Shown piece by piece: positions 7,264 through 49,594 of a stretch of DNA of 64,000 nucleotides (its first letter is position 1; every line of letters starts with the position of its first letter). The DNA comes from Terriglobia bacterium. Lineage in GTDB: Bacteria; Acidobacteriota; Terriglobia; Acidiferrales; UBA7541. The notes below the pieces were generated by a model, which made no database searches, was not told the DNA's origin, and was given only the letters and a program-made list of their open reading frames with translations. The DNA lies in contig OY968796.1 in assembly GCA_963695545.1 (NCBI GenBank), positions 3,360,001 through 3,424,000 on the forward strand, given 5' to 3'. The position numbers and the translations under genes were made by a program.

Positions 7264-7370
7264 CAGCCCCGTAGGGGCGGCAGAGCTTAGCCCAGGGCGT
7301 AAGCCCTGGGCATGCAAAACAAAAATACCTTTCTCTCAGTTGTTTTGTCTGAGCCCCGTAGGGGCGACAC
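7264..7370. repeat. REP family B (GCCCCGTAGGGGC + CCCAGGGCGTAAGCCCTGGG)
   Basis: Two nested palindromes, with the same unit recurring at ~29.2-30.2, 35.5, 41.3, 46.3 and 49.4 kb. Confidence 0.85.
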
Positions 7371-9298: not shown

Positions 9299-10141
9299 GT
9301 GGAGCATGCACGCGAGAGCTACCAAGTATCAGAGCGGCATGCCTGCCGGTTGCTGGGGCAGTGGAGAGGGACACAACGCTACGAGGTGATCCACCGAACG
9401 GATGAAGACGCGCTGACGCGAGACATCGTGGCGCTGGCCAGCGAGTACGGGCGCTTCGGCTATCGGAGGATCACGGCGCTGTTGCAAGCACGGGGCTGGT
9501 ATGTGGGCAAGGATCGGGTGCAGCGGATCTGGCGGCGCGAAGGGCTGAAAGTGCCGCAGGGACAAAGGCCGCGAGGAAGGCTGTGGTTGAACGACGGATC
9601 GTGTGTTCGTCTCCGGCCGGAACGAGCCAACCATGTGTGGAGCTACGATTTCGTGAGCGCGATGACCCACGACGGCCGAACACTGCGAATGCTGACGCTG
9701 ATCGACGAATACACGCGGGAGTGCCTGGCGATCCGCGTGGCGAGAAGGCTGGGGAGATACGAAGTGATCGAAGCGCTGGCGGACGTGATGCTTTACCGGG
9801 GAATTCCGGAACATATTCGCTCGGACAACGGCCCGGAGTTCGTGGCCAAGGAGCTGAGGAGTTGGCTGGCGAAGGTGGGAACGGGGACGCTGTACATCGA
9901 ACCGGGAAGCCCTTGGGAGAATGGCTACTGCGAAAGCTTCAACGGGAAATTGCGCGATGAATGTTTGAACGGAGAGATTTTTTACTCGCTGAAGGAAGCG
10001 CAGATCGTGATCGAGAAATGGCGGATGGTGTACAACACGCTGCGTCCGCACTCAGCGCTGGGCTACAGGCCACCGGCGCCGGTGGCCTGTAGCCCCTTGG
10101 TGCCGCCAATTCTCGGTTCGCCGTCGACGGCTGTGATGTAG
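9299..10141 (+). CDS. IS3 transposase OrfB (DDE integrase core), -1 frame relative to OrfA
   Basis: WSYDF, RSDNGPEF, ENGYCESFNGKLRDE, RPHSALGY. Confidence 0.95.
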   Translation: MEHARESYQVSERHACRLLGQWRGTQRYEVIHRTDEDALTRDIVALASEYGRFGYRRITALLQARGWYVGKDRVQRIWRREGLKVPQGQRPRGRLWLNDGSCVRLRPERANHVWSYDFVSAMTHDGRTLRMLTLIDEYTRECLAIRVARRLGRYEVIEALADVMLYRGIPEHIRSDNGPEFVAKELRSWLAKVGTGTLYIEPGSPWENGYCESFNGKLRDECLNGEIFYSLKEAQIVIEKWRMVYNTLRPHSALGYRPPAPVACSPLVPPILGSPSTAVM

Positions 10142-16968: not shown

Positions 16969-17490
16969 CTATTGAAACATTTTTGCGATGGTCTGCATCG
17001 GCAGAAACAAACGCCTCGGGACCTTGAGGTCGATAAATCCGAATTCCTTGTAAAAGGCTTCGGCTTTTTCGTCCTTCGCATCGACAACCACGGTCCAGGA
17101 TGCAATTTCGCGACTGAGGATGAGACATCGATGAAGGGCGTCCATCAGCAACATCGGGCCTAAGCGAATTCCGTAGTCGATAGCGGTGCTTCGAGCCAGT
17201 CTTCCGATCAAAGTCGCCGGGACCTCGTTGTGCCTGCTCAGTTTTTGCGCAAGAGCCTCCGGGACGCTGTCCAGAAATATCGAATACTGCGACAGTGTGT
17301 AGTAGCCGGCGATGGTCTTACCGTCGGGCGTCATCACGAAGACTGCGGCGAGATTTTTCCTGACGCTTTGGCCCGCTTGCGTTTTGAGATAAATGTCCAG
17401 TTGCGGGACGCCACAAGAAAAAGCCGCCCGGTCGTGATTCGGTCCGAGCGGCTCAAAGACGAAGTTGGGTTGATTTTGACGTTCTGCCAA
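16969..17490 (-). CDS. GNAT acetyltransferase toxin (TacT/AtaT/KacT type)
   Basis: FSCG..QLD.YL, IAGYYTL, PATLIGRLA, VDAKDEKAEAFY..FGF. Coupled to the DUF1778 gene, TTG start. Confidence 0.9.
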   Translation of the reverse strand: MAERQNQPNFVFEPLGPNHDRAAFSCGVPQLDIYLKTQAGQSVRKNLAAVFVMTPDGKTIAGYYTLSQYSIFLDSVPEALAQKLSRHNEVPATLIGRLARSTAIDYGIRLGPMLLMDALHRCLILSREIASWTVVVDAKDEKAEAFYKEFGFIDLKVPRRLFLPMQTIAKMFQ

Positions 17491-17820
17491 TCACAACTCC
17501 ATCGGCTCCATCAGCCCCATGCGTTCTTTATATTCAGCAGCCGCCTTCTTCGCCGCTGCATTGGGTTCGGGCGGATTCAATAGCATGTTGACGAATAGCT
17601 CGCGGCTTGCGTCGCGCAGGTTCAACATCTCGTAGTCCTTGACGGTTGCCGCAGCGGCCTCCTCGAGTTTGGCCACCACAAAATCTGTGAGAGAAGTTCC
17701 GCGCAGTAGTGCAGCGCGTTCGATCAGGCGTTTTTGCTCAGGGGTGAGCCTGGCTTCGAGGCGTTCTGCGCGGCTGGGAGCTTTCCTTGTCGTCCTCACG
17801 GCTCTAGCTGTCCGCGGCAT
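17491..17820 (-). CDS. DUF1778 ribbon-helix-helix antitoxin (TacA/AtaR type)
   Basis: RLEARLT.EQK.LIERAA..G.SLTDFV, F...L.NPPEPN. GGAGG RBS. Confidence 0.9.
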   Translation of the reverse strand: MPRTARAVRTTRKAPSRAERLEARLTPEQKRLIERAALLRGTSLTDFVVAKLEEAAAATVKDYEMLNLRDASRELFVNMLLNPPEPNAAAKKAAAEYKERMGLMEPMEL

Positions 17821-17844
17821 ACTGGCCTCCAATTCACCCTTGCA

Positions 17845-17873
17845 AATGTACGGCAATTTGCCGGGTATGTCAA
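17845..17873 (-). promoter_or_regulatory. sigma70 promoter of the TA operon with palindromic operator in the spacer
   Basis: TTGACA-17 nt-TACATT. Spacer contains the inverted repeat CGGCAA-A-TTGCCG (17851-17863). Confidence 0.75.
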
Positions 17874-23770: not shown

Positions 23771-24412
23771 TCAATCAAAGGAATAAGGCGACGTGCGGGA
23801 TGTACTGCGGCGTGTGGACGCCGATGCGTCCATGTCCAGCGAATCGGCGGCTTCGTTGTCGGAGGAATAGAGAGGGCGGCGCGTGGGTTTGCGCAGAGGA
23901 TATTCGCGGCCGCGCAGATTCGTCGCGGCGCATTGGCGGCAAACGGCTTTGCCGCATTTTTCGATTTCGGCTGCGCGGTCGCACATTCTGAAATAAAAAC
24001 ATGACGGCGGCGCGGCGCTCGGCGCGGTGCGCATGGCTTCAATCGACTGCGCGAGGCGCAATGCTTGAATCGTCTGCGCGGTGCCCGTCGCTTCAATTGG
24101 CTGCGCGCTGCGCAGTGCTTCGCCGCGCTGCGCGAAGCGCGTTGCTTCAATCGGCCGCGCGGTGCGCAATGCCTTAATTGACTGCGCGGAGCGCGCCGAT
24201 TTGCCGGACTGCGCGGAGCGCATTGCCTTAATCGTCTGCGCGGAACGCGTTGATCTGGTCGGATGGGATCGGCGGACGGCTTTGGGCGAGGGCTTCTTCT
24301 TGGCGGGAGGACGTCGCGGCGGGATTACGGTGGCGCGGCGTTTGAGCAGGCGGGCAATTCTCTTCTGGGCGGGGACGCTTCGCGGACTACGGCGGCGGGA
24401 TCGCGCGGGCAA
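23771..24412 (-). CDS. basic hypothetical protein with 9-aa repeats and Cys-rich segment
   Basis: 27-bp repeat (RSAQSIKAL-like, about 8 copies) then C..C..C..CxxC. Directly follows 24434..25225. Confidence 0.45.
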   Translation of the reverse strand: MPARSRRRSPRSVPAQKRIARLLKRRATVIPPRRPPAKKKPSPKAVRRSHPTRSTRSAQTIKAMRSAQSGKSARSAQSIKALRTARPIEATRFAQRGEALRSAQPIEATGTAQTIQALRLAQSIEAMRTAPSAAPPSCFYFRMCDRAAEIEKCGKAVCRQCAATNLRGREYPLRKPTRRPLYSSDNEAADSLDMDASASTRRSTSRTSPYSFD

Positions 24413-24433: not shown

Positions 24434-25225
24434 TTAATGATGCGCGGCGACGGCGCCGACTACGGCCCCGGTGGCCGCGCCGATCGCGAACCATTTCGCG
24501 CCGCGGCGCAGGCGCGTCCAGAAGCTTCCGCCCTTCGCGCTTGTGACGGCGGCGTCGCGCTGTTGCGTGAGCGCGGTGACCTGCGTCTGCGCGTCGGCCA
24601 AATCTTTTTTCGCGGTGTCGCGGTCGAGCGTGGTCGCCTGGCAATTCTCGAAATAATCGTAGAGCGGCTGGAGATCGGCCTGCGGAATGTTCGCGACGAT
24701 CGGAGCGAGGTTGCTCGGGACTGCGGCGCTCGCGCTCGCGCCAGCGGCGCCCGCGCTGACGCCGGGCGCGGCGGGAAGGCTCGCGCCGTTTTGCGCCGCA
24801 GATTGGGCGTTAGCGGAATTGCTCGCCCTGGTATTCGCGCCGGCGCTCGCAGGCTGATTCCCTGCCCCGCCGGCCTGCGCGTTGGCCGAACTTGGCGCTG
24901 ACGGTGAAATCGTGATCGGTTGCGGCAGCGGCGGCAGCGCCGACGGCAGCGCGGCGAGCGCTTGCTGCGGCGTCTGAACTTTTTTCTCGAGCGCGGCGAT
25001 TTGCGCGAGCTGCGTCGCGAGTTGCGCGTCGCGCGCTTTTTCGCTGGCTGCGGCCGCGTCGAGATGTTTCTGCGATGCCGCGAGCGTGGCCGAAAGCGCC
25101 GCGGCGCTGCGATGCGCCGCAAACCACGCGTGCGCGATCAGCGCCGCAGCGATCAGCAGCGCGACAAGCGCGACCGCGCGCCAATGTTTCCAGGCGAGTT
25201 CGTCGAGTGAGAGGGGAATTGACAT
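24434..25225 (-). CDS. membrane-anchored coiled-coil protein, possible spanin-like lysis accessory
   Basis: N-terminal TM, coiled coil, Pro/Ala linker, second coil and C-terminal hydrophobic helix. Lies downstream of the endolysin. Confidence 0.6.
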   Translation of the reverse strand: MSIPLSLDELAWKHWRAVALVALLIAAALIAHAWFAAHRSAAALSATLAASQKHLDAAAASEKARDAQLATQLAQIAALEKKVQTPQQALAALPSALPPLPQPITISPSAPSSANAQAGGAGNQPASAGANTRASNSANAQSAAQNGASLPAAPGVSAGAAGASASAAVPSNLAPIVANIPQADLQPLYDYFENCQATTLDRDTAKKDLADAQTQVTALTQQRDAAVTSAKGGSFWTRLRRGAKWFAIGAATGAVVGAVAAHH

Positions 25226-25306
25226 ATAGGTCAGCGCATCTCGTCGCGCTAGACGGTCAGAATGCCCGCGGTAAGAGCGTGGAGATGGAGCATCGGCAAT
25301 TCAGAG

Positions 25307-25624
25307 TTAGGACTTTGTTGGTTTCTGAGTTGATCGCGATTGCGGGGAACTGGACTGTGATTCTACGGCGATGATTTTCTTGTTTTTCAGGATTTCGATG
25401 TAGTCATCGAGTGACACGTCACACCTGATCAGACCCGCCAATTGCTTCTCGTTGAGTTTCAGTTGCTGTCTGATCAGATTCCCGGGCTGTTCTTTATTTC
25501 CCTGTGAGCGTTTTGTGCGGACCACCGTCTGACCGCCATATTCAAACCAAGCGAGTCGGTCTCCGCTGTTACGTACCTTGAGTCCTAACTTGTTTACGAT
25601 TTTCTCAAATTCATGGACTTTCAT
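25307..25624 (-). CDS. HicA-like putative toxin
   Basis: Small basic alpha-beta-beta-beta-alpha pattern (FEKIVNKLGL..SGDRLAWF..IRQQLKL). The canonical HicA His is not evident. Confidence 0.5.
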   Translation of the reverse strand: MKVHEFEKIVNKLGLKVRNSGDRLAWFEYGGQTVVRTKRSQGNKEQPGNLIRQQLKLNEKQLAGLIRCDVSLDDYIEILKNKKIIAVESQSSSPQSRSTQKPTKS

Positions 25625-26045
25625 GGGGCCGCCGCACGACATGCTCTTTCAATACACCCCAGACTTTGGCTAAGTCCGGCCCGAGGCGCGGTTCCTCTGC
25701 CTCCAGTGAAACGTAGAGTTCAGCGATCGTATGTCCGAGATCATCGCAAGCCGAGGAATTCGACTTGCCGGTTCCAAATTCGTCCACCTGCCTCCACGAC
25801 GCGATAGCAGTGGCTCCGCGTCGGTCCAGATCGACGGGGATCGGCTTAATCACTCGAAACTCGCATCGACTGATCGTCCCGAGGAGGATCTGCTTCGGGC
25901 CGCGTTCCCGTCTGCGAATATGAACTTTAATTCTTTGGATAACGTCGTGAAGCACCACTGCCTGTGGGACATCGGGCGGTGGCACAAATTTGGGCGCAGG
26001 CTGCTCAAGATTTTGATTTACAAGGTATTGGGGCATAGCGGCCAT
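25611..26045 (-). CDS. HicB-like putative antitoxin
   Basis: C-terminal half FGTGKSNSSACDDLGHTIAELYVSL resembles the HicB G.T..EA..N fold. Overlaps the downstream gene by 14 nt. Confidence 0.5.
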   Translation of the reverse strand: MAAMPQYLVNQNLEQPAPKFVPPPDVPQAVVLHDVIQRIKVHIRRRERGPKQILLGTISRCEFRVIKPIPVDLDRRGATAIASWRQVDEFGTGKSNSSACDDLGHTIAELYVSLEAEEPRLGPDLAKVWGVLKEHVVRRPHESP

Positions 26046-26048
26046 ACT

Positions 26049-26480
26049 CTAGTTACCTCGTATCAGCCCTAGGGGCGGAATCTGAAGCTTGTCGGCCCTG
26101 ACGAGAGCCCGGCCGAGAAAGACGTCGTTTGCATACAGCTGGAACTCATAAGTCCCGAATTCGGCTATGGGGATGCCGGCGAAATTGAACGCCAATTCCA
26201 TCGGATCGTCTGGCTTGGCCCATTGCGCGTCCACCCTTATCTCCACGACAGGAGATTCGTCCCTGAGATTCACCAGTCGAACCCGAAGGTTGTACGTCCC
26301 AGAACCCTCAACCAATTTCGCATACAGGCCTAGGCTGTTTATCGGAAACGGAACGGCCGGAGACTGAACTCGATCAAAAACTCCCACAAGCGTTCGTTTT
26401 TGAGTCGCAGCGTCTTGTATCACCGTGTCGCAAACGATGATCGCCAAAACTGTCGGAATGGGGCTGGATTCAGCCATCAA
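26049..26480 (-). CDS. DUF6941-like beta-sandwich protein
   Basis: AIIVCD.VI.D..T.K.TLVGVFD, FGTYEFQLYAND. Confidence 0.65.
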   Translation of the reverse strand: MMAESSPIPTVLAIIVCDTVIQDAATQKRTLVGVFDRVQSPAVPFPINSLGLYAKLVEGSGTYNLRVRLVNLRDESPVVEIRVDAQWAKPDDPMELAFNFAGIPIAEFGTYEFQLYANDVFLGRALVRADKLQIPPLGLIRGN

Positions 26481-26665
26481 GCAATATCTAGGACATCATC
26501 AGCCGGAATGTTCGTGAAAGCAAGGGGGCACGCGGTTACAGTACGCCCGATCCGCAGGTTTCGCCTCCTCTTCGCTCCCGTGGCGCGCGCGATAAGACCA
26601 GCTAGTTGTCTGCGGCGCGCGCTCTTGTGTGTTAATCAAGGTAAAGGCCCATCCGCGCGGCGATT

Positions 26666-27109
26666 TCATTTGTAATGCGCGACGCGAGACAAAACCTCGG
26701 CGGGATAATCGCGATTGGCGCCGCCGTTCCAGGCGAGCAGGGCGCGCGTCGCGTCGCCGGCGGCGGCGTCGAATTTCGCGCGCAATTGGCGGCAGCCGAA
26801 TTCGAGGCCAGTGGCGGGATCGCAGAGTTCGGCGAGCGACGCGGCTTCGCAGCCGAGCTCGCGCGCCACCTGGCCCATCAGCTGCATCAGGCCCCAGGAG
26901 ATCGAGCGCGTGTAGGCCTCGGTGGCGGAAATTTTGCCGGCGTTGTAGAGCGGGGCGATGTAGCGCGCGAGAAAACCCGGCTCATAGCGCACGGCCCACG
27001 GATTCCAGGCCGATTCCTGTTCGACGACCGCGCAGACCAGCGGCGGATCGAGTTTGTGCGCGACCGCGGCAACGCGAGCGAGCGCGATGAGTGCGGGCGG
27101 TGCGGACAC
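26666..27109 (-). CDS. soluble lytic transglycosylase (SLT) endolysin
   Basis: AVVEQES.WN.WA, SWGLMQ and ALLAWNGG motifs. Confidence 0.9.
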   Translation of the reverse strand: MSAPPALIALARVAAVAHKLDPPLVCAVVEQESAWNPWAVRYEPGFLARYIAPLYNAGKISATEAYTRSISWGLMQLMGQVARELGCEAASLAELCDPATGLEFGCRQLRAKFDAAAGDATRALLAWNGGANRDYPAEVLSRVAHYK

Positions 27110-27192
27110 TGAATATCTGAAGGGTGAAAATGGGATCGACGGCGCAGCGTCTATGGGCGGAAATCCAAGAGAAACAGAACGGGCGGCACCGT

Positions 27193-27229
27193 AAAAAAGA
27201 AAGGACTCGACCGAAGCCGAGTCCTTTCT
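27193..27229 (-). terminator. intrinsic terminator
   Basis: 14-bp stem AGAAAGGACTCGGC/GTCGAGTCCTTTCT with cUUCGg loop followed by a U tract. Confidence 0.9.
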
Positions 27230-27251
27230 AAGAATCTGTCCTTGCCAAGGT
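27193..27251 (-). ncRNA. predicted ~59-nt sRNA antisense to the adjacent tRNA's anticodon arm
   Basis: Starts 7 nt after a -10 box. First 14 nt ACCUUGGCAAGGAC are the exact reverse complement of tRNA nt 27377-27364. Ends in an intrinsic terminator. Confidence 0.65.
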
Positions 27252-27257
27252 AAGAAC

Positions 27258-27286
27258 AGATTAACCGAAACAGCCTAGGCTGTCAA
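27258..27286 (-). promoter_or_regulatory. sigma70 promoter for the sRNA
   Basis: TTGACA (27286-27281), 17 nt, TAATCT (27263-27258). Overlapped by the perfect palindrome ACAGCCTAGGCTGT (27270-27283). Confidence 0.7.
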
Positions 27287-27332
27287 GATAACTTCCTACG
27301 CATATCCCTTTTTGCATAGGCCATGCAACCGC

Positions 27333-27404
27333 TGGACGCGACGGGGCTCGAACCCGCAACCCGACCTTGGCAAGGACGTGTGTTCCCAATTACACCACGC
27401 GCCC
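27333..27404 (-). tRNA. atypical tRNA, anticodon GCC (Gly) with alanine-type acceptor stem; CCA not encoded
   Basis: Hand-folded cloverleaf GGGCGCG TG GTGT AATTGGGA ACAC A CGTCC TTGCCAA GGTCG GGTT GCGGG TTCGAGC CCCGT CGCGTCC A. Confidence 0.85.
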
Positions 27405-27513
27405 ACGTGTACTACTAACATATCTATCCGTGTCTGACAACACATGGATCGATGGTCCAAGGCTGCGCCACCTGTGAATCGGACCAAAGCGGAAGTCAAA
27501 ACCGCGCACTGTG

Positions 27514-27759
27514 TCAATCGCGGCGCTTGGTGTCGGTCAGGTCGATGAAGCCGATCGCGGGGGGATCCTCGAGATGAATGCCGAGATGATCGGCGATCTG
27601 GCGCAGCGCGTGGTGCAGGTGTGGCAGATGGATCAGCGCCATGGCGGTGACAAAAGTGCGGCGGATTTCATCGTCGCGCATGCGTCGATGCAGCCAACGC
27701 ACGAACAGCGTGAATTGCGCCAGAATCGCGAATGCGACGACGACCCAGTAGGGGTTCAT
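27514..27759 (-). CDS. small single-TM protein (holin candidate)
   Basis: GGAGG RBS, N-terminal TM. Last gene before the endolysin if the tRNA insert is removed. Confidence 0.6.
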   Translation of the reverse strand: MNPYWVVVAFAILAQFTLFVRWLHRRMRDDEIRRTFVTAMALIHLPHLHHALRQIADHLGIHLEDPPAIGFIDLTDTKRRD

Positions 27760-27924
27760 GTCGTCCTCCGAACTGATCTGGCGTGGGGCGGAGCGAGCCG
27801 GCGCGGTTTCGTGGCGCGTGCCGCTCGCGCACCCTGCGATCTTTCGCGCGCACAGATTTCGAGCGAAAGTCCTCGGTCAGAGGAGCTTTCGCGGTAAACA
27901 AGTCAAATTTAATTTACGTGCTTG

Positions 27925-28479
27925 TCAGATGGCACCGCCGATGCCGGCGGTTAGGCCGTTCGGGCCGATGCCGAGATTGAAACTGTTGCTGGGAGCGGCG
28001 GCGCGTTGCTGAACGCCCAAAATATCGCTGGGGATGCCGAGCGCGCGGCCGAGCAGGCCGGAATTTGTGCCGTACAAACCAGCGAGACCTTGCAGCGCGG
28101 CGAGCTGATCGGATTGCTGTTTATTCGCGAATGCGATCTGCGCATTTTGCGCGACGGTGGCGGCGCTGGTGCCATAATTCCGCGAGAGCGCGTCGAGCGT
28201 GCTGTTGTAGCCGGCGTTGTTGTTGGTGGCGGCGGCGCGCGTGGCGGCGTTGTTCATCAGCGAATCGAACGTGCTGCCGAGCGCGCCCATGGCTTGCCCG
28301 GTGATCGCGGATTGCTGCGCCGCGGTGTAGCCGGGATTGTTCAGCAGATTCTGATAGCCCGGCAGCAGCTGGCTATAGAGCGAAGAATTCTGGCTGGTGA
28401 GATTTTGATTGATCGCGTTCTGCGTGGCGAGTTGCTGATTGGTCGCCTGGACCGTTTGCCCTTCTGAGCCGCGTCCCAT
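27925..28479 (-). CDS. putative internal virion / DNA ejection protein
   Basis: GGAGGT RBS. Q/N/A/G-rich helical composition, located after the nozzle-like genes. Confidence 0.55.
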   Translation of the reverse strand: MGRGSEGQTVQATNQQLATQNAINQNLTSQNSSLYSQLLPGYQNLLNNPGYTAAQQSAITGQAMGALGSTFDSLMNNAATRAAATNNNAGYNSTLDALSRNYGTSAATVAQNAQIAFANKQQSDQLAALQGLAGLYGTNSGLLGRALGIPSDILGVQQRAAAPSNSFNLGIGPNGLTAGIGGAI

Positions 28480-28550
28480 GTGAAGACACCTCCGTGGAAT
28501 GAATTCGAGATTTGAGTGGCGGCGCGCGTGATTCGCGCGATGTGTTTTTT

Positions 28551-28621
28551 GTAGCGGAGGCCTTTAGGCCTCCATCTGGGGCGTGCGTGGAAAAGGCTGG
28601 AGGCCTAAAGGCCTCCGCTAC
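28551..28621. repeat. REP family A inverted pair (GTAGCGGAGGCCTTTAGGCCTCC)
   Basis: GTAG-headed palindrome. Also at ~15516, 33817/33871, 34747/34796 (variant), 35575, 36259, 38235/38283, 44050/44121, 46215, 48770 and 49529. Confidence 0.9.
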
Positions 28622-28687
28622 ATAACCCGTGCTACAGAGCCGCGGCCGCGAGCCTCGGCGATGCGCGCTCCGCAAACGAAGCGTGCG

Positions 28688-29209
28688 TTACGAGTTTCCG
28701 CTGGTCGTGGTTTTGCCGAAGCCGGAGCCGCCGCTGCCGCCGCTGGCGGTGCCGCTGCCGGATGAAGCTTGCGGCGCGGGGCCGGCCGCGCCTCCGCCGA
28801 CAACCGGCGTGGCGGGCGAACCGAAGACGACCGCGGCCGATGGTTGCGAGCCGAGATATTGCGAATAGCCGCGCCAATATAATGTTTGGTTGCCGAGCGA
28901 AACGCGCAGATTGCGCGAGCTGCCCAGAAAATAAACGTGCGGCGCGGCGAAGCCGGGCGTGCTGTCCGACTCGACGAAATAATATATGCCCTTATTCACG
29001 GCGGAATTGTCGGTGATGGCCACGTCGAAAATTCCGTCGGCCGCGACCACGGAGATTCCGCCGATCGGCGCGGGCGCGGTGATGTCGCCCGAAGGATCCA
29101 CGCCCGTCGCGCGGCCGATCGAATTCACGGCGGAGATGACCTGCGTGATGGCTTCGTAGGTGTACGGCGATTCGCTTTTGATGCGCGCGAGTTGTGGGAC
29201 GGTGAGCAT
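28688..29209 (-). CDS. hypothetical phage structural protein
   Basis: In the morphogenesis operon, beta-rich with Gly/Ser tail. Confidence 0.65.
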   Translation of the reverse strand: MLTVPQLARIKSESPYTYEAITQVISAVNSIGRATGVDPSGDITAPAPIGGISVVAADGIFDVAITDNSAVNKGIYYFVESDSTPGFAAPHVYFLGSSRNLRVSLGNQTLYWRGYSQYLGSQPSAAVVFGSPATPVVGGGAAGPAPQASSGSGTASGGSGGSGFGKTTTSGNS

Positions 29210-29240
29210 TTGAATCGAATACGATTTTCGCGAACGTTTG

Positions 29241-30452
29241 TGTCGCCCCTACGGGGCTTAAAACAATTGGAGAAAATATAAAATGGACCGCGTACCCAGG
29301 GCTTACGCCCTGGGCTAAGCTCTGCCGCCCCTACGGGGCTGGTTTTCGTGCGGGCCGCGATTTCGTCACGTGGCGCGACCTCAGCATTGCGCGAAAAAAG
29401 ATGCCGCCCTAAAGGGCGGCGCTACAACGACAAAGTCTACGGCGCAATCACGCGACGTCAACCTTGCGGCAGAAGCAGGGCCAGGGATCGCGGCGCCAGC
29501 CCAGGCGCGCGAGGCGACGGCCGAAGGCGCGCGCGACGGGCGGCGGCAGAAACGCTTGTGCGTCGTCGAGGCCGCGGGCGGCGGCGGCGCGGCGCGTGGC
29601 TTCGTGCATCACCAGAAAACGCTGCCAGCGATCGCGCGGTGTGCCGGCACGCGGATCGTGAAGCAAATATGTTTCGGCGGTCAGGCGCAGGAGCACGCCC
29701 ATGGCCGGCTCGCCGGAATCGTCCTCGAGCACCAATTTTGAAATGAATAGCGGGCTCGTGAGATCGGGAAACGGATAGCCGAAGCCTTGCGCGGCGTGCA
29801 GGCGGCGCAGAGCGTCGAGATCGCGTTCCGTATATTCGCGGATCAACATCTGGGACGAAAGAAGGAAAATTCGACGGACCCGCGTGTGGGGCCGGTGCGA
29901 GGTGGCGCCGGGAGGTGGCGCTCGCCGCGCGATCACAAATCGCTTCGTGATGCAGCCCCGTAGGGGCGGCAGAGCTTAGCCCAGGGCGTAAGCCCTGGGT
30001 GGACAAATCCTCCACACGTTTTTCATCAAATGTTTTTCTTAAGCCCCGTAGGGGCGACACAGTCGTTGAATCAATTGCGGATATCGCGAGCGCTTGTGCC
30101 GCCCCTACGGGGCTAAGACAAAACATTTGGGAATAATCTAATTTGCGAATCGTTCCCAGGGCTTACGCCCTGGGCTAAGCTCTTTCGCCCCTACGGGGCT
30201 GGTTTTCGAGTGCGCGGCGATTTCGTCCCGTGGCGCGATTGTCGCGGGCACGGTTTGCGTAGCACAGCCATTCCTGGCTGTGCGATTTTGGGTTTTCTAC
30301 ACGCGGCGCAAAAAAGCAAAGGCGCACAGGCAGGAATGCCTGTGCTACGAAAAGACGATGGCGCGCCCCGCTACACGAGGCAGAACATTCAGCACGCCCG
30401 CGCGCGGCAAACACCGAGAGATCCCTCGTCGAGGACTCCTCGGGATGACGGC
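29241..30452. repeat. REP clusters flanking the GNAT-like gene (families A, B and others)
   Basis: Family B at 29241-29341, 29953-30061 and 30099-30202. GTAGCACAGCC/CTGTGCTAC pair at ~30258-30348. Confidence 0.8.
29448..29849 (-). CDS. GNAT-like phage protein
   Basis: MLIREYTERDL N-terminus and FGRRLARLGW C-terminus. Position after the nozzle gene as in many podoviruses. Confidence 0.6.
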   Translation of the reverse strand: MLIREYTERDLDALRRLHAAQGFGYPFPDLTSPLFISKLVLEDDSGEPAMGVLLRLTAETYLLHDPRAGTPRDRWQRFLVMHEATRRAAAARGLDDAQAFLPPPVARAFGRRLARLGWRRDPWPCFCRKVDVA

Positions 30453-35368: not shown

Positions 35369-35634
35369 GTGCGTTGCGAGATCAAAGGCGTGACGCCCCT
35401 GCCGGGGCTTGCGCGAGAGACAAAACAACAATTGAGAAAAATATATTAATCGCGATCGTACCCAGGGCTTACGCCCTGGGCTAAAATGTGCCGCCCCTAC
35501 GGGGCTGATTTTTGAGTGCGCCGCGATTCCGGCCTGGAGCTGGCGACGCCGAGATCGCCGCGCAACAGCAAGGTGGAGGCCTGAAGGCCTCCGCTACATA
35601 AATCCGAAGCGATCGTGCATTGGTAGGGGCGCGG

Positions 35635-38413: not shown

Positions 38414-39685
38414 CTAGTAGCCGCTGGGGCGGGCCAGCGTGTCGATGTAGGCGCCGCTGCGCGGAGAATCGGCGAAGAGCTGGAAGCCGGTGTCGAAGTA
38501 GAAGATGAACGCGGCGGAAACGCCGCCGGACGCGCCGTAAATCGGGAACACGGTTTGTCCGCCGACCTCGAAGAAGTCGATGTCCTTCATGACGGCGCGG
38601 CCCCAGTGCGAAAGATCGAGAAAATCGATGCGCGTCTGGTTGGCGTTGATCGAGCTCTTGATCGGCACGCCGGACATGGTCTTGCGTCCGGTGAAAAGCA
38701 GATCGAGATCGCTGGCGCGGCCGCCGCTTCCGCCTTCCTTGATCACCTGGCTGATGGTGATGCCGAGATTCTCCCAGGCATGTTCCTGTTCGACGGAAGT
38801 GTAGGCGATGAGCTTGCCGAGCTGCGCGATGCCCAACGCTTTGCGCACTTTGTTGATCGCCAGACGAACATAGCCGGGCACGAGCGCGGAATTGCCGGCG
38901 TTCACGCGTGGCGTGGCGAGTTGCTGCGGATACGTGGCGCGATTCAGATTCAGCCACGTGCCGGTGGTCGCGTTGTTCTGATGATACGGCACGCCGTAGA
39001 GCGAAACCGGCTGCGCGCCGGAAAGGCCGTCGTGCACGATCACGTCGTTCGCGGTGGTGCCGGTGGGCACGTTGTCGACCACGATGGTTTGCGTGGTGAT
39101 CGGATCGGCTTCGAGCACGGTGGTGGTGACGTTCGCGGCGATGTTGCGATTCGTGGTCAGCGTGGGATCGTAGATCTGAATCACCTGGCCGACGTACACG
39201 AGCGCCGCGCCGGGCGGCACGTTCATGGTGAACGTGGAGCCGGAGAGCGAACCGATCGTGCCGAGCACACCGTTGCCGGCGGTCTGAATCACTTTGTCGA
39301 GGAACGCGCGGAATTGTTTCATTCCGTTGGCGACCTCGCGCTTCACCGCGTTCTCGATGGCTTTTTCCTTGTTGTTCGTGGCGTACTCGACCAGCTTCGA
39401 GATTTCCACCGCGAACCGGAAAAATACCGGCGAGATTTGCGCCACGTCGTAGGTGGTGCCCGAACCGCGGCCCAGATCGCCGCCGTCCGGATTGTAAGCG
39501 CCCGCCGCGCCGCCGGGATTCACTTGCAACGGAATCCGCATGTTGCGCGAGCTGACGCGTTCGACGTCACCGCGCGCCTGGATCATGGTGAGTAGGACGT
39601 CGTCGCGCTCGTAAAGCAGCGGCACTTTGTCCCGCACCTTTTCCAGTTGGATTGCTATGGTCTGCGCATTCTGCATTTGAGCCAT
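38414..39685 (-). CDS. major capsid protein
   Basis: GAGGTG RBS, 423 aa, position downstream of portal, HK97-like alpha/beta pattern with an insertion domain. Confidence 0.75.
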   Translation of the reverse strand: MAQMQNAQTIAIQLEKVRDKVPLLYERDDVLLTMIQARGDVERVSSRNMRIPLQVNPGGAAGAYNPDGGDLGRGSGTTYDVAQISPVFFRFAVEISKLVEYATNNKEKAIENAVKREVANGMKQFRAFLDKVIQTAGNGVLGTIGSLSGSTFTMNVPPGAALVYVGQVIQIYDPTLTTNRNIAANVTTTVLEADPITTQTIVVDNVPTGTTANDVIVHDGLSGAQPVSLYGVPYHQNNATTGTWLNLNRATYPQQLATPRVNAGNSALVPGYVRLAINKVRKALGIAQLGKLIAYTSVEQEHAWENLGITISQVIKEGGSGGRASDLDLLFTGRKTMSGVPIKSSINANQTRIDFLDLSHWGRAVMKDIDFFEVGGQTVFPIYGASGGVSAAFIFYFDTGFQLFADSPRSGAYIDTLARPSGY

Positions 39686-40047: not shown

Positions 40048-40890
40048 CTACATCACAGCCGTCGACGGCGAACCGAGAATTGGCGGCACCAAGGGGCTAC
40101 AGGCCACCGGCGCCGGTGGCCTGTAGCCCAGCGCTGAGTGCGGACGCAGCGTGTTGTACACCATCCGCCATTTCTCGATCACGATCTGCGCTTCCTTCAG
40201 CGAGTAAAAAATCTCTCCGTTCAAACATTCATCGCGCAATTTCCCGTTGAAGCTTTCGCAGTAGCCATTCTCCCAAGGGCTTCCCGGTTCGATGTACAGC
40301 GTCCCCGTTCCCACCTTCGCCAGCCAACTCCTCAGCTCCTTGGCCACGAACTCCGGGCCGTTGTCCGAGCGAATATGTTCCGGAATTCCCCGGTAAAGCA
40401 TCACGTCCGCCAGCGCTTCGATCACTTCGTATCTCCCCAGCCTTCTCGCCACGCGGATCGCCAGGCACTCCCGCGTGTATTCGTCGATCAGCGTCAGCAT
40501 TCGCAGTGTTCGGCCGTCGTGGGTCATCGCGCTCACGAAATCGTAGCTCCACACATGGTTGGCTCGTTCCGGCCGGAGACGAACACACGATCCGTCGTTC
40601 AACCACAGCCTTCCTCGCGGCCTTTGTCCCTGCGGCACTTTCAGCCCTTCGCGCCGCCAGATCCGCTGCACCCGATCCTTGCCCACATACCAGCCCCGTG
40701 CTTGCAACAGCGCCGTGATCCTCCGATAGCCGAAGCGCCCGTACTCGCTGGCCAGCGCCACGATGTCTCGCGTCAGCGCGTCTTCATCCGTTCGGTGGAT
40801 CACCTCGTAGCGTTGTGTCCCTCTCCACTGCCCCAGCAACCGGCAGGCATGCCGCTCTGATACTTGGTAGCTCTCGCGTGCATGCTCCAC
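40048..40890 (-). CDS. IS3 transposase OrfB
   Basis: Translation identical to 9299..10141. Confidence 0.95.
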   Translation of the reverse strand: MEHARESYQVSERHACRLLGQWRGTQRYEVIHRTDEDALTRDIVALASEYGRFGYRRITALLQARGWYVGKDRVQRIWRREGLKVPQGQRPRGRLWLNDGSCVRLRPERANHVWSYDFVSAMTHDGRTLRMLTLIDEYTRECLAIRVARRLGRYEVIEALADVMLYRGIPEHIRSDNGPEFVAKELRSWLAKVGTGTLYIEPGSPWENGYCESFNGKLRDECLNGEIFYSLKEAQIVIEKWRMVYNTLRPHSALGYRPPAPVACSPLVPPILGSPSTAVM

Positions 40891-40913: not shown

Positions 40914-41192
40914 TTAGAAGTTTCCCTCTGCCACATCCTTCAGAATTTGCTTCTCCAACGAAAGCTCCGCCACCAACCGTTTCAGCTTGGCGTTTTCCCG
41001 CTCCAACTCTTTGAGGCGTTTCGCTTGATCCAACTTCAGGCCGCCGTATTCCTTCCGCCAGCGGTAGTAGGTCTGCGCGGTGATCTCGGCTTCCTTGCAG
41101 GCTTGTGGGGTGCTCTTTCCGTTGGCGATTTCAACTTCAACTTGCCGCAGCAGCGTGACGATCTGCTCCGGCTTGTATCTCCTCATCGGCAT
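40914..41192 (-). CDS. IS3 transposase OrfA
   Basis: Translation identical to copy 1 OrfA. Confidence 0.93.
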   Translation of the reverse strand: MPMRRYKPEQIVTLLRQVEVEIANGKSTPQACKEAEITAQTYYRWRKEYGGLKLDQAKRLKELERENAKLKRLVAELSLEKQILKDVAEGNF

Positions 41193-41342
41193 ACCAGCTT
41201 CCCTCCAGAGTGAATTCTCTCTCACTCCCGCTGGTACAAAAAACCCCGGTCAGGTCACTACCCCGGGGTTTAACCCGGGGTTAAGCTGTTTCGCCCCTAT
41301 GGGGCTGGCCATCGAGTGACCCCGCAATTTTGGCCCGGACCC

Positions 41343-44170: not shown

Positions 44171-45748
44171 TTACCAGCGGCGCGGGAGAGGCGCGGGGGC
44201 GCGGGCGGCGCGGGACTCGCCGACGAATTTGCGGAGCCAGATGGCGCGCGACGTGGGATCATGCGCGGGGATGCGGCCGGCGAGCGCGAGCTCGGCGGGG
44301 ATGCGCGCGGGCTCGATGCGCGATTTCAGGCCGTAGCGCGCGGCGTCGGCGGCGTCGTCGCCATCGACTTTGCGCACGTCCTCGACGTTCACAGTGTCAC
44401 GCGTGAGCGTGGGCAGGCATTCGAGCAACTGATCGCACGCGCTCGAAATTTGCCACTGACCCGTTTCCATCATTTGATACATGAGCATCCAGCCGCCGAC
44501 GCGATCATTGTCGGCGGGCGCGGGGCGCGGGAGGCCGGCGGCGGCCAGGCCTTCGCCGAGTTGCTCGGCGATGGATGCTTCGGCGGTGCGCTCGGCGAAC
44601 GCGTCAGGCGAAAGAAATATTTCGGCGATGCGCTCGAGTTCGCCGTTGCGGCCGACACTGCGTTCGGCGATCGCGGCGGAAAGCATGCGCGGCGACAAAT
44701 GATTCTGCACGAACTCGCGATACGTGAGCGTGACGCCGTCGGGCCGCGCGGTGTGCCAATAGACCGCGCTGGGATGCTCGAAGCCCCAATCAATCGAAAT
44801 CCAGCGCGGCCACCAGCTTTCAAGCTGGATGGTGTGCGAGGCGACGACATGGCGCGCGCGATCGAAGGAATCGAAATATTGGCCGGCGAAAACATTCCAA
44901 TCGCCGTCGAGAAAAGCCTGGCGCAGGGCTCGCGGCAGCGCGCGCAAAGTTTTCAGATACGATTCGTCGTTCGCGTAAATCGGATTGTCGCGCACCGTCG
45001 CGCGAATGAAAGCGTAATCGCGCGGATCGTATTCACCGGCCTGCTCCATGCCGGGCGCGGGACGCTTTTCGATCCACAACGCTTTCACCCAGGCGTGGCC
45101 GGTGTTGCCGGGATTCGTGGCGCCGGCCATGTTGGGCCGGGCGTCGCGCAGGGGGCAGCGATTTCGCGACGTTAGAAATTGCCACTGGCGCAGCGTGAAG
45201 TGCGTTAGCTCGTCGATGCCGATGAAAACGAATTCCGCGCCCTGATATTGATAGACGTCGTTTTCGCTGGCGGAATATCCGAAGCGCGTGGTCGAGCCAT
45301 TTTTCCAGGTGACGATGTGTTTCGAGTCGTTGTAGCGCAAATATAAATTGCGCGGCACGTCGCGCCGGAAATATCCGAGCAGCGAGGCTTCGAGTTCCGG
45401 AAACGTGCGGCGCGGAAGCAGCGTGTCAACGCCGGGATATTGATTCGCCTGGCGGATGGCTTCCCACAGCAGCGCTTTGGTTTTTCCGGGACCAGCCGCG
45501 CCACCGAACAGGCGATACTTCGCGTTCGAGCGATGAAATTCTTCCTGGCGCGGAAACGGGCGATAGTGTTCCGAGATCACGATGCCGCGGCGCGGACGCG
45601 GCGCGCCGGGGACGATGTCGTCGACGAGCGCGTCGTCTTGATCGGCGTCGTCGTCGAGCGGATCGTCGGCGCGTGCCGTCGCGTCAAGAGAAACATCGCC
45701 GCGGCTCTTTTTCTTCGCGCGCGGGTGTTTGCGTTTCTTGGCCGGCAT
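44171..45748 (-). CDS. terminase large subunit
   Basis: Walker A GGAAGPGKT, Walker B FIGIDE, ATNPG, DNPIY, RNase H motifs IDWGFEHP and DDAADAARY. Confidence 0.93.
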   Translation of the reverse strand: MPAKKRKHPRAKKKSRGDVSLDATARADDPLDDDADQDDALVDDIVPGAPRPRRGIVISEHYRPFPRQEEFHRSNAKYRLFGGAAGPGKTKALLWEAIRQANQYPGVDTLLPRRTFPELEASLLGYFRRDVPRNLYLRYNDSKHIVTWKNGSTTRFGYSASENDVYQYQGAEFVFIGIDELTHFTLRQWQFLTSRNRCPLRDARPNMAGATNPGNTGHAWVKALWIEKRPAPGMEQAGEYDPRDYAFIRATVRDNPIYANDESYLKTLRALPRALRQAFLDGDWNVFAGQYFDSFDRARHVVASHTIQLESWWPRWISIDWGFEHPSAVYWHTARPDGVTLTYREFVQNHLSPRMLSAAIAERSVGRNGELERIAEIFLSPDAFAERTAEASIAEQLGEGLAAAGLPRPAPADNDRVGGWMLMYQMMETGQWQISSACDQLLECLPTLTRDTVNVEDVRKVDGDDAADAARYGLKSRIEPARIPAELALAGRIPAHDPTSRAIWLRKFVGESRAARAPAPLPRRW

Positions 45749-49274: not shown

Positions 49275-49594
49275 GCGGATCTCCCTCGTCGAGAATTTCG
49301 GGCGCGAGCGCGTCGGAGTGTTCGGGTGGCACGAGCGGCGCGAAAGAAAAGATGTGTCGCCCCTACGGGGCTTAAAACAAATGGAGAAGAAATATTTTTG
49401 CTGCGCGTACCCAGGGCTTACGCCCTGGGCTAAGCTCTTTCGCCCCTACGGGGCTGGTTTTTCGGCGCCGTCGCGATTGCGCGGCGTGGCGTCAGATGTT
49501 GGTGCGGTTCGCACGTGAAAAGCAAGATGGAGGCCTGAAGGCCTCCGCTACATAAGGCAAAAGACAATTCGCGATCGCGCCGCGCGCCTCGCGG

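Follow-up and report, generated by a model that had tools for sequence, protein, structure and literature searches.

A conserved acidobacterial cassette of a tRNA-like gene and a putative small RNA complementary to its anticodon arm

Several described systems resemble the locus reported here in one respect or another. In type VIII toxin-antitoxin systems, such as CreTA and SdsR/RyeA, both the toxin and the antitoxin are RNAs, and in the type I system hok/sok the toxin is a small membrane protein and a fold-back element keeps the hok messenger RNA inert. In addition, acidobacteria harbor suppressor-type transfer RNAs (tRNAs) whose identity elements disagree with their anticodons; in passages of two reports, some of these allo-tRNAs carry G3:U70 and insert alanine in Escherichia coli, and some lie near toxin-antitoxin genes or transposons (PMC5389517, PMC7609411). 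The locus studied here lies in a stretch of 64,000 nucleotides (nt) from a Terriglobia bacterium (assembly GCA_963695545.1, contig OY968796.1, positions 3,360,001 to 3,424,000), hereafter called the window. It consists of a tRNA-like gene with anticodon GCC and, downstream of it, a predicted small RNA (sRNA) whose first 14 nt, the seed, perfectly complement the anticodon arm of that tRNA; all parts are encoded on the minus strand. We read this locus as belonging to a family of two-RNA cassettes that is conserved and self-contained in acidobacteria and, with a probability of roughly 0.45, as a device in which the sRNA masks an alanine-accepting, mis-decoding tRNA in the style of a toxin-antitoxin system.

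To our knowledge, there is no description of a bacterial small RNA dedicated to pairing with the anticodon arm of one specific tRNA whose gene lies beside its own. The nearest kinds, namely type VIII systems, hok/sok, T-box riboswitches and transfer-messenger RNA (tmRNA), each share one trait with the cassette and fail on the defining ones. As in type VIII systems, the putative antitoxin RNA is complementary to the putative toxin RNA and encoded beside it, the antidote would work through this complementarity, and translation would be at stake. The putative toxin, however, is here a tRNA-like RNA with alanine identity and predicted toxicity, and the antidote would pair directly with the anticodon arm, in trans, from a non-overlapping gene and with no Cas proteins involved. 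As in hok/sok, one partner would be stable and weakly expressed and the other a short antisense RNA with strong expression, a fold-back in cis could keep the precursor inert, and the occurrence is accessory and multi-copy. Unlike in hok/sok, the target is an anticodon arm rather than a messenger RNA leader, and the window cassette contains no toxin open reading frame (ORF): the eight ORFs of at least 20 amino acids in the interval 27190-27410 all coincide in part with the tRNA or its flanking sequence, and not one resembles a membrane peptide, a candidate that was sought and rejected in the window only.

T-box riboswitches likewise present a codon-like sequence, partly in a hairpin loop, which pairs with the anticodon of a specific tRNA and is followed by a terminator. 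In the cassette, by contrast, a pairing of 10-23 nt must open the anticodon stem, the partner tRNA belongs to the same cassette, and no regulated aminoacyl-tRNA synthetase or amino-acid gene lies downstream; the downstream genes differ between loci, and Rfam 15 returned tRNA matches only, at gathering level for the window and at E values up to 0.1 for seven relatives. The tmRNA is also an alanine-accepting, tRNA-like RNA with G3:U70, and our search pattern for the T arm and acceptor stem also matched RNAs without an ARAGORN call, which we took as tmRNA 3' ends in other phyla. Members of the cassette family, however, form a complete cloverleaf that includes an anticodon arm, and they lack a coding part; derivation from the tmRNA of this genome was rejected, as its acceptor and T arms differ from those of the window tRNA. 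Our search of the full-text literature, which lay outside subscription-only papers and supplements, found no description of such a cassette.

A sequence-only reading of the locus had placed a promoter (TTGACA-17-TAATCT), a 14-nt complement and a 14-bp terminator with a UUCG loop downstream of the tRNA, and all three were recovered in our analysis (Table 1). ARAGORN called a single tRNA in the window, Gly(GCC) at 27405-27331 of the minus strand, and the Rfam tRNA model (RF00005) matched 27404-27333 with 54.1 bits, above its gathering score of 29. An eighth acceptor pair drawn by ARAGORN (T-1:A73) was rejected, since base -1 is not conserved. The seed and its target form the arms of an inverted repeat (27238-27251 and 27364-27377) that are 14 nt long, 100% complementary and 112 nt apart. 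The U29 that had been singled out as unusual forms a U:U mismatch with U41 in the ARAGORN drawing. The fold suggested for the 14-mer, with a GGC codon displayed in a loop, coincides with the structure of lowest predicted energy for the 5' end of the sRNA, a weak CCUU/AAGG hairpin.

Chance as the origin of this complement is excluded. Among the 54 ARAGORN calls of the genome, only the window tRNA has a complement of 14 nt in the 220 nt downstream of it; the next best reaches 11 nt and the remainder at most 9 nt. Shuffled downstream stretches (n = 1320) yielded at most 11 nt, and 79 ordinary phage tRNAs with the same D-arm and T-arm motifs yielded at most 10 nt, in no case within the anticodon arm. 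The idea that the complement is tuned to the window tRNA rather than to that of the host also held, with 14 contiguous bases matched in the former and 9 in the host tRNA-Gly(GCC).

Homologous cassettes, for which a search had been proposed, were found in number; the family counts given here come from the matches listed in the scans and from sampled genomes. When the window cassette was used as a DNA query against 401 genomes of the phylum, the tRNA part alone was matched. Four full-length relatives had a similar acceptor stem and other anticodons (GUC in L002; GCG in L003, L019 and L023), and each carried a complement of its own arm 95-102 nt downstream, after a TTGAC..TAnnnT site and before a terminator. 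A pattern scan of species-representative genomes with a 25-nt T-arm and acceptor pattern gave at least 122 stretches, 80 of them with DNA, and the pool of these 80, the four relatives and the window amounted to 85 distinct matches. We removed 18 for want of the family D arm (tmRNA 3' ends, as we assumed, and others) and one for insufficient length, and kept 66. An exact complement of the own arm of at least 10 nt was present in 58 of these 66 genome-derived members (median 15, maximum 23); it invariably involved the anticodon arm and lay about 100 nt downstream. In eight members it was shorter than 10 nt (L034, L048, L065, L073, L076, L085, L098 and L104). The median was 6 nt for non-cognate pairs (n = 3302) and about 5 nt for shuffles, and the 66 members contained 53 distinct arm sequences.

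A second scan, of metagenomes, required the motifs of the D and T arms and TTGACT and placed no constraint on the acceptor stem. Of the 62 distinct stretches recovered, 55 had a complement of at least 10 nt and one was an ordinary tRNA-Gly(CCC). After the removal of two canonical tRNAs, the combined set comprised 131 distinct members, mostly from acidobacterial genomes and soil metagenomes. A covariance model with the anticodon arm left unpaired was also run over 151 genomes of one acidobacterial family, and its scores were distributed bimodally. Among the 28 top loci (one from an unpublished genome left out), 26 had a complement of at least 10 nt, and one locus combined an AUC anticodon with a matching GAU in the seed. 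The layout shared by the family is a tRNA-like gene, a structured spacer, a near-consensus promoter, a complement of 10-23 nt and a terminator.

Whether the anticodon arm and the sRNA 5' sequence co-vary had been posed as a test, and they clearly do so across the genome, metagenome and covariance-model sets. When 53 GUC-type cassettes were aligned with MAFFT (an unfitted alignment), the helix of 16 intermolecular pairs between arm and seed was 94% paired, and 12 of its 16 pairs changed on both sides; one column, for example, contained CG 21, UA 16, AU 8 and GC 3 times. None of 500 shuffles reached any of five whole-structure measures, although such counts overstate significance because related sequences are not independent. 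Independent of this kinship problem are the variety of pair types and the slid controls, in which moving the partner by 1-3 columns reduced the pairing to 30-52%. The predicted duplex of the seed (with 6 nt on either side) and the whole tRNA had a median energy of -36 kcal/mol for cognate and -21 kcal/mol for non-cognate pairs; these energies, like the structures and promoters described below, are predictions. The co-variation supports the proposed dedicated RNA-RNA pair, and we consider it very probable that the pairing of seed and arm is functional.

The spacer between the two genes contributes further elements. It holds two hairpins, the second of which shows compensatory changes in 10 of 11 stem pairs and carries in its loop a stretch of 6-10 nt that can pair with the anticodon loop and with the end of the 5' strand of the anticodon stem. 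In most relatives, 6-8 nt of the anti-anticodon sequence of the seed recur in this loop. A loop match of at least 6 nt was found in 108 of the 131 members, compared with 18.6% of non-cognate pairs, and in 93 of these 108 the predicted fold leaves the element unpaired. Across the alignment, the loop of this second hairpin is 93.5% paired with the anticodon loop, with compensatory changes at positions 33 and 37. The window copy is a short variant, its -35 element lying 46 nt past the ARAGORN 3' end as compared with about 61-75 nt in most relatives. Its spacer hairpin (loop GGCCU), with only four bases (UGGC) complementary to the anticodon loop, is a weak counterpart of the co-varying loop of the family. 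The sRNA promoter is kept throughout the 53 aligned cassettes, with TTGAC at -35 in 53/53 and a GATAAT-like -10 element (GATAAT or TATACT) at fixed spacing. In relatives, the seed starts 5-9 nt after the -10 element and the terminator follows directly afterwards.

The tRNA-like gene itself joins alanine identity elements to a non-alanine anticodon. The GlyRS (glycyl-tRNA synthetase) identity set established in E. coli comprises U73, C2:G71, G3:C70, C35 and C36, and a decoding-competent anticodon arm is expected to have a 5-bp stem, U33 and a purine at position 37. The window tRNA has A73, G2:C71 and G3:U70, and C35 and C36 alone fit the glycine set. Its acceptor stem, GGGCGCG/CGCGUCC with G1:C72 at the end, therefore contains both identity elements of AlaRS (alanyl-tRNA synthetase), G3:U70 and A73, the former being described as the major one in a passage of PMC7609411. 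Six of its seven acceptor pairs are identical to those of the tRNA-Ala(UGC) of the same genome, and its D loop of 8 nt is likewise Ala-like. In comparison, the three canonical tRNA-Gly genes of the genome all have U73 and start with GCGG, and the canonical tRNA-Gly(GCC) among them has U73, an encoded CCA and a 5-bp anticodon stem. Judged by these elements, the window tRNA is no ordinary glycine tRNA. Its anticodon arm retains U33, A37 and four of five stem pairs.

These features are typical of the family. Among the metagenome members recovered without acceptor bias (n = 65), G3:U70 was present in 62, A73 in 63 and a CCA at positions 74-76 in none, and the Rfam tRNA scores of seven relatives were 52-63 bits. 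The anticodons of the 131 members were GUC (91), GCG (35) and GCC (3), with two odd ARAGORN calls (a four-base gcga and a two-base gt), and G34 was invariant. The anticodon stem had five pairs in 13 members, four in 68 and three in 49, and the predicted energy of the arm hairpin had a median of -1.3 kcal/mol, as against -5.5 kcal/mol for the 53 tRNAs of the genome with three-base anticodon calls. Most loops of the GUC type, such as CUGUCCA (46/131), differ from the few loops of decoding type. Within the subtypes the anticodon triplet is fixed beside flanks that drift with compensation, indicating a constraint beyond pairing. Upstream of the tRNA gene, the 131 members share a TAnnnT-like -10 element at -12 to -7 relative to G1, suggesting that transcription starts at or beside the mature 5' end (about G1), and no conserved -35 element, suggesting that the promoter is weak.

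With allo-tRNAs the family shares the phylum, the disagreement between identity and anticodon and, for some of them, G3:U70 and a location near toxin-antitoxin genes or transposons (passages of PMC5389517 and PMC7609411). According to the passages of PMC5389517, the acceptor and T arms of allo-tRNAs form a 12-bp branch divided as 8/4 or 9/3 and the variable arm is long, whereas the cassette family has the standard 7/5 arrangement and a variable loop of 4-5 nt; in the window tRNA, the acceptor stem measures 7 bp, the T stem 5 bp and the variable loop 4 nt. A complementary RNA is not mentioned in the passages of the two papers, where 'antisense' occurs 0 times in both and 'complementary', searched in PMC5389517 only, occurs 0 times. 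The genome also contains further irregular ARAGORN calls (G000:C1, 344768-344860, 2007148-2007327, 2260191-2260283 and 3061455-3061540). These include two 'Ile(UAU)' genes of 93-97 nt without CCA, one directly behind a 69-nt 'Gly(UCC)' with G3:U70, as well as an unassigned call of 93 nt and an 86-nt 'Ala(GGC)'. They resemble the acidobacterial allo-tRNA(UAU) and polycistronic odd tRNAs in the passages of PMC5389517.

The distribution of the cassette is that of an accessory element. In the window it is flanked by a transglycosylase/endolysin-like gene (26666-27109) on one side and by small unknown genes on the other, within a phage-derived cluster to which a major-head-like gene (38414-39685) and a large terminase gene (44171-45748) also belong; the called ORFs include no integrase. 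The cassette region has no repeat of at least 13 nt elsewhere in the window, and its matches elsewhere in the genome are at chance level. The idea that the tRNA gene serves as an integration site was rejected, as neither an att-like direct repeat nor an integrase was found. A sister species (G622) carries the same cassette at the same site, with a tRNA identical in 72 of 73 positions, compared with 83-89% in the flanks, and a seed with one change that gives a G:U pair. A third species of the genus (G726) has the flanking genes with no tRNA between them. The cassette is thus present in two of three species of the genus, and its absence from the same site in the third identifies it as an accessory insertion or deletion. 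The empty site (L386, G726:C42 about 23900-24180) contains at least three copies of a different palindromic repeat (GGGTGCCCCATGTTCGCC ... GGCGAACATGGGG).

At other loci, the cassette stands beside unrelated housekeeping genes and is syntenic within subgroups; two loci adjoin IS1595 transposases. No protein was common to all loci in the 1.5-kb flanks, with cassette-overlapping ORFs excluded, and no conserved partner enzyme gene was present there; the downstream genes are often convergent. A gene seemingly conserved at 58 loci in the first neighbor clustering was an artefact of antisense ORFs running through the conserved tRNA. The strict pattern placed the cassette in 8 of 401 genomes of the class and the covariance model in 30 of the 151 family genomes scanned with it, or 29 of 149 when two unpublished genomes are left out, with up to five copies per genome. 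One genome has two cassettes 2.9 kb apart with different arms and seeds.

Taken together, these data lead us to the following model. The first gene would provide an RNA that keeps the tRNA fold and alanine identity, with a non-alanine anticodon, a deliberately weak anticodon stem, no CCA and a weak promoter consisting of a -10 element only. The second gene, about 50-70 nt downstream on the same strand, would yield an sRNA of about 50-65 nt from a near-consensus promoter, its first 10-23 nt complementing the loop and one strand of the neighboring anticodon stem. The abundant, short-lived sRNA would open and mask the anticodon arm and probably mark the duplex for decay, and the cis elements (hairpin loop and seed) would mask read-through transcripts likewise, keeping precursors inert. 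This masking would silence a stable alanine-accepting tRNA that could otherwise place alanine at very frequent codons, Gly GGC/GGU for the window copy and Asp or Arg codons for its relatives. When sRNA synthesis stops, whether because the element is lost or because host transcription is shut off, the tRNA would be freed, matured and charged, and would harm the cell. Such a logic would be that of a toxin-antitoxin or abortive infection system, similar to hok/sok and made entirely of RNA.

Two lines of argument favor this model. First, the tRNA core and alanine identity are kept, the triplet is fixed, the anticodon stem stays weak and two neighboring elements complement the arm, and the simplest reading of these features is that the RNA would be seen as a tRNA-Ala, would decode, and would have its anticodon covered. 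Second, the weak tRNA promoter and strong sRNA promoter, the stable fold of one partner and the short hairpin form of the other, and the patchy, multi-copy spread suggest a toxin-antitoxin logic. In terms of codon load, GGC and CGC are the second and third most used codons of the genome, and each anticodon type (GCC, GUC or GCG) reads about 5.3-5.6% of its codons. A harmful tRNA held in check would fit the alanine identity on a Gly, Asp or Arg anticodon, the promoter contrast and the patchy, accessory, multi-copy distribution. We put forward only tentatively the fuller version, in which an Ala-charged tRNA toxin misreads frequent codons, a labile sRNA and a cis hairpin serve as its antidote, and hypervariable stems and seeds keep paralogues orthogonal; as a complete account it is rather doubtful.

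Several observations weigh against the model. Pyrimidines occupy position 37 in 52 of the 131 members (about 40%) and C occupies position 33 in 27 (21%; purine 37 in 79, U33 in 104), which weakens a pure decoding-toxin model. Both positions vary in step with the seed and the hairpin loop and follow the pairing partner rather than the ribosome. CCA is encoded by 48 of the 54 tRNA calls of the genome and is absent from the window tRNA, and a search of this genome for RNase Z gave no match above the cut-off; maturation to a chargeable tRNA is therefore uncertain. The genome does contain two genes of the PolyA_pol family (CCA-adding type). Many loci are syntenic beside housekeeping genes. In IMG/VR, the D-arm and T-arm pattern gave 79 matches, all of them ordinary phage tRNAs and none a family member, and the window cassette as a query matched no phage or plasmid record; as viral, phage and plasmid collections hold few acidobacterial elements, this absence is weak evidence. 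The window copy lacks a convincing second anti-anticodon element in a hairpin loop. A consensus promoter scan listed no promoter in 26600-28000, missing that of the sRNA because its poor -10 element TAATCT matches TATAAT in three of six positions, and the promoter call therefore rests on conservation in the family.

An RNA-library signal was obtained from two soil metatranscriptome runs alone (shares of 0.07 and 0.04 of the sampled words), each with one contig in the 90-95% identity band, 171 nt covering 27246-27387 and 151 nt covering 27233-27382; window parts without such cover are uninformative. Both contigs come from relatives and bridge the 3' part of the tRNA, the spacer and the start of the seed, a weak hint of read-through RNA. 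They are the sole signal of this kind, carry no information on strand or ends and may be DNA.

Of the competing explanations, the one that survives best is a regulated, non-toxic specialist, an Ala-charged tRNA-like RNA that would serve programmed low-level mistranslation under stress or act as a non-ribosomal alanine donor, with the sRNA and the loop as its switch. We regard it as unlikely. It would accommodate the strong conservation of G3:U70, A73 and the tRNA core alongside an anticodon loop that often breaks the decoding rules, the synteny of many loci with housekeeping genes, and a pairing that co-varies like any functional RNA helix. However, the 1.5-kb flanks contain no conserved partner enzyme gene, and fixed anticodon triplets would be needless for a non-ribosomal donor. 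The patchy occurrence (30/151), the presence and absence within one genus, the paralogues and the neighboring insertion sequences and phage-derived cluster also fit an accessory element better than a core function.

Two further explanations are both improbable. In the first, the roles are reversed: the sRNA would be an effector acting on the anticodon loops of host tRNAs or on messenger RNAs, and the tRNA-like RNA, as the better complement, its sponge or decoy. Sponges of sRNAs derived from tRNA precursors exist in E. coli, a stable tRNA fold would make a good sponge, and the window seed matches the nine contiguous bases mentioned above in the loop region of the host tRNA-Gly(GCC). Yet the seeds drift freely with the partner stem (53 distinct arms in 66 members), which is hard to square with conserved external targets, and most GUC-type loops are unlike decoding-type loops, so that the seeds do not look tuned to a canonical tRNA. 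Moreover, a sponge would need neither G3:U70 nor A73, and a strong promoter on the sRNA side suits an antidote better than a poison.

In the second, there would be no separate sRNA, and the 3' trailer of a long precursor would fold back on the anticodon arm, giving a self-masked pre-tRNA with regulated processing. No terminator lies between the tRNA and the seed, the 215-nt read-through RNA is predicted to pair the seed with the anticodon arm, and the two bridging contigs provide weak support. The hairpin-loop element, located upstream of the sRNA promoter, could act from no transcript other than a read-through one. On the other hand, a role in RNA only would not explain why sigma-70-type promoter motifs are conserved while unpaired, with TTGAC in 53/53 cassettes, a GATAAT-like -10 element and fixed spacing, and the toxin-antitoxin model in any case allows cis and trans modes to coexist. 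That nothing here is functional is scarcely credible; the locus would then be an ordinary or decaying tRNA gene followed by its terminator, and the inverted repeat a product of chance or a relic, for example the scar of an integration site. The anticodon arm is itself nearly palindromic and the tRNA lies within a phage-derived cluster, but the shuffle, phage-tRNA and genome-tRNA controls, the co-variation across more than 130 relatives, the lack of any tRNA repeat of at least 13 nt elsewhere in the window and of an integrase, and the near-identity of the tRNA in a sister species with more divergent flanks all speak against it.

The features of the window locus are collected in Table 1. The -35-like assignment for the tRNA gene is weak because the family has no conserved -35 element, and its -10-like TAGTAG is absent from the listing of the consensus promoter scan. 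The palindrome in the sRNA promoter, which differs by one base in the sister species G622, could be an operator for a DNA-binding protein.

Table 1. Positions of the cassette elements in the 64-kb window, listed in the direction of transcription
Feature	Position	Strand	Remarks
-35-like element TTGTCA of the tRNA-gene promoter	27435..27440	-	inferred; 17 nt upstream of TAGTAG; weak assignment
-10-like element TAGTAG of the tRNA-gene promoter	27412..27417	-	inferred; 7 nt before tRNA base G1
tRNA-like gene, anticodon GCC	27333..27404	-	ARAGORN, Rfam
Seed target, tRNA positions 28-41 (anticodon stem 5' strand, loop, part of 3' strand)	27364..27377	-	
Spacer hairpin UUGCAU-GGCCU-AUGCAA, GGC codon in loop	27312..27328	-	kept in same-genus genome G622
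-35 element TTGACA of the sRNA promoter	27281..27286	-	kept in G622
Perfect 12-nt palindrome CAGCCTAGGCTG in the sRNA promoter spacer	27271..27282	.	overlaps the last two -35 bases
-10 element TAATCT of the sRNA promoter	27258..27263	-	17 nt from -35; 6 bases before seed
Predicted sRNA, about 59 nt (5' seed, linker, terminator)	27193..27251	-	start predicted from promoter, end from terminator
Seed ACCUUGGCAAGGAC, perfect complement of tRNA positions 28-41	27238..27251	-	
Intrinsic terminator hairpin, 14 pairs, UUCG loop	27198..27229	-	followed by T run 27197-27193

The surroundings of the cassette have features of their own. About eight small genes around it (24434-30126, minus strand) gave no Pfam or PHROG match except DUF6941 (26049-26480), and several of them show 80-89% nucleotide identity in two sister species. 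The Acido-Lenti-1 RNA motif (RF01687) occurs in six copies within the 64 kb, at about 60 bits each against a threshold of 37: 7265-7310(-), 29295-29340(+), 29954-29999(-), 30155-30200(+), 35461-35506(+) and 49410-49455(+). Five of the six are found between genes of the phage-derived cluster. Such a density of copies resembles that of a repeated hairpin element, mobile or of terminator type. An IS3-type transposase (rve and HTH_21) is present twice with identical Pfam scores, at 9299-10141(+) and 40048-40890(-); the second copy, together with an HTH_Tnp_1 partner ORF at 40914-41225(-), splits the phage-derived cluster between head and portal-side genes. Outside this cluster and about 10 kb from the cassette, 16969-17856(-) encodes a TacA-like antitoxin (PF08681) beside a GNAT acetyltransferase (phrog_1758), a pair that looks like a TacAT-type module; TacAT toxins acetylate charged tRNAs.

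In conclusion, a pairing kept by matched changes on both sides points to an RNA-on-RNA control module of a kind that appears undescribed. If our model is true, tRNAs would join the RNAs that are regulated or weaponised, and deliberate mistranslation would gain a natural, switchable example. The co-varying pairs of seed and arm would also offer a ready set of orthogonal RNA-RNA switches. Even if toxicity fails, a three-element RNA device found in more than 130 sequences with very clear intermolecular co-variation needs an explanation, and the cassette makes testable a question raised in 2017, namely why acidobacteria keep odd suppressor-type tRNAs.

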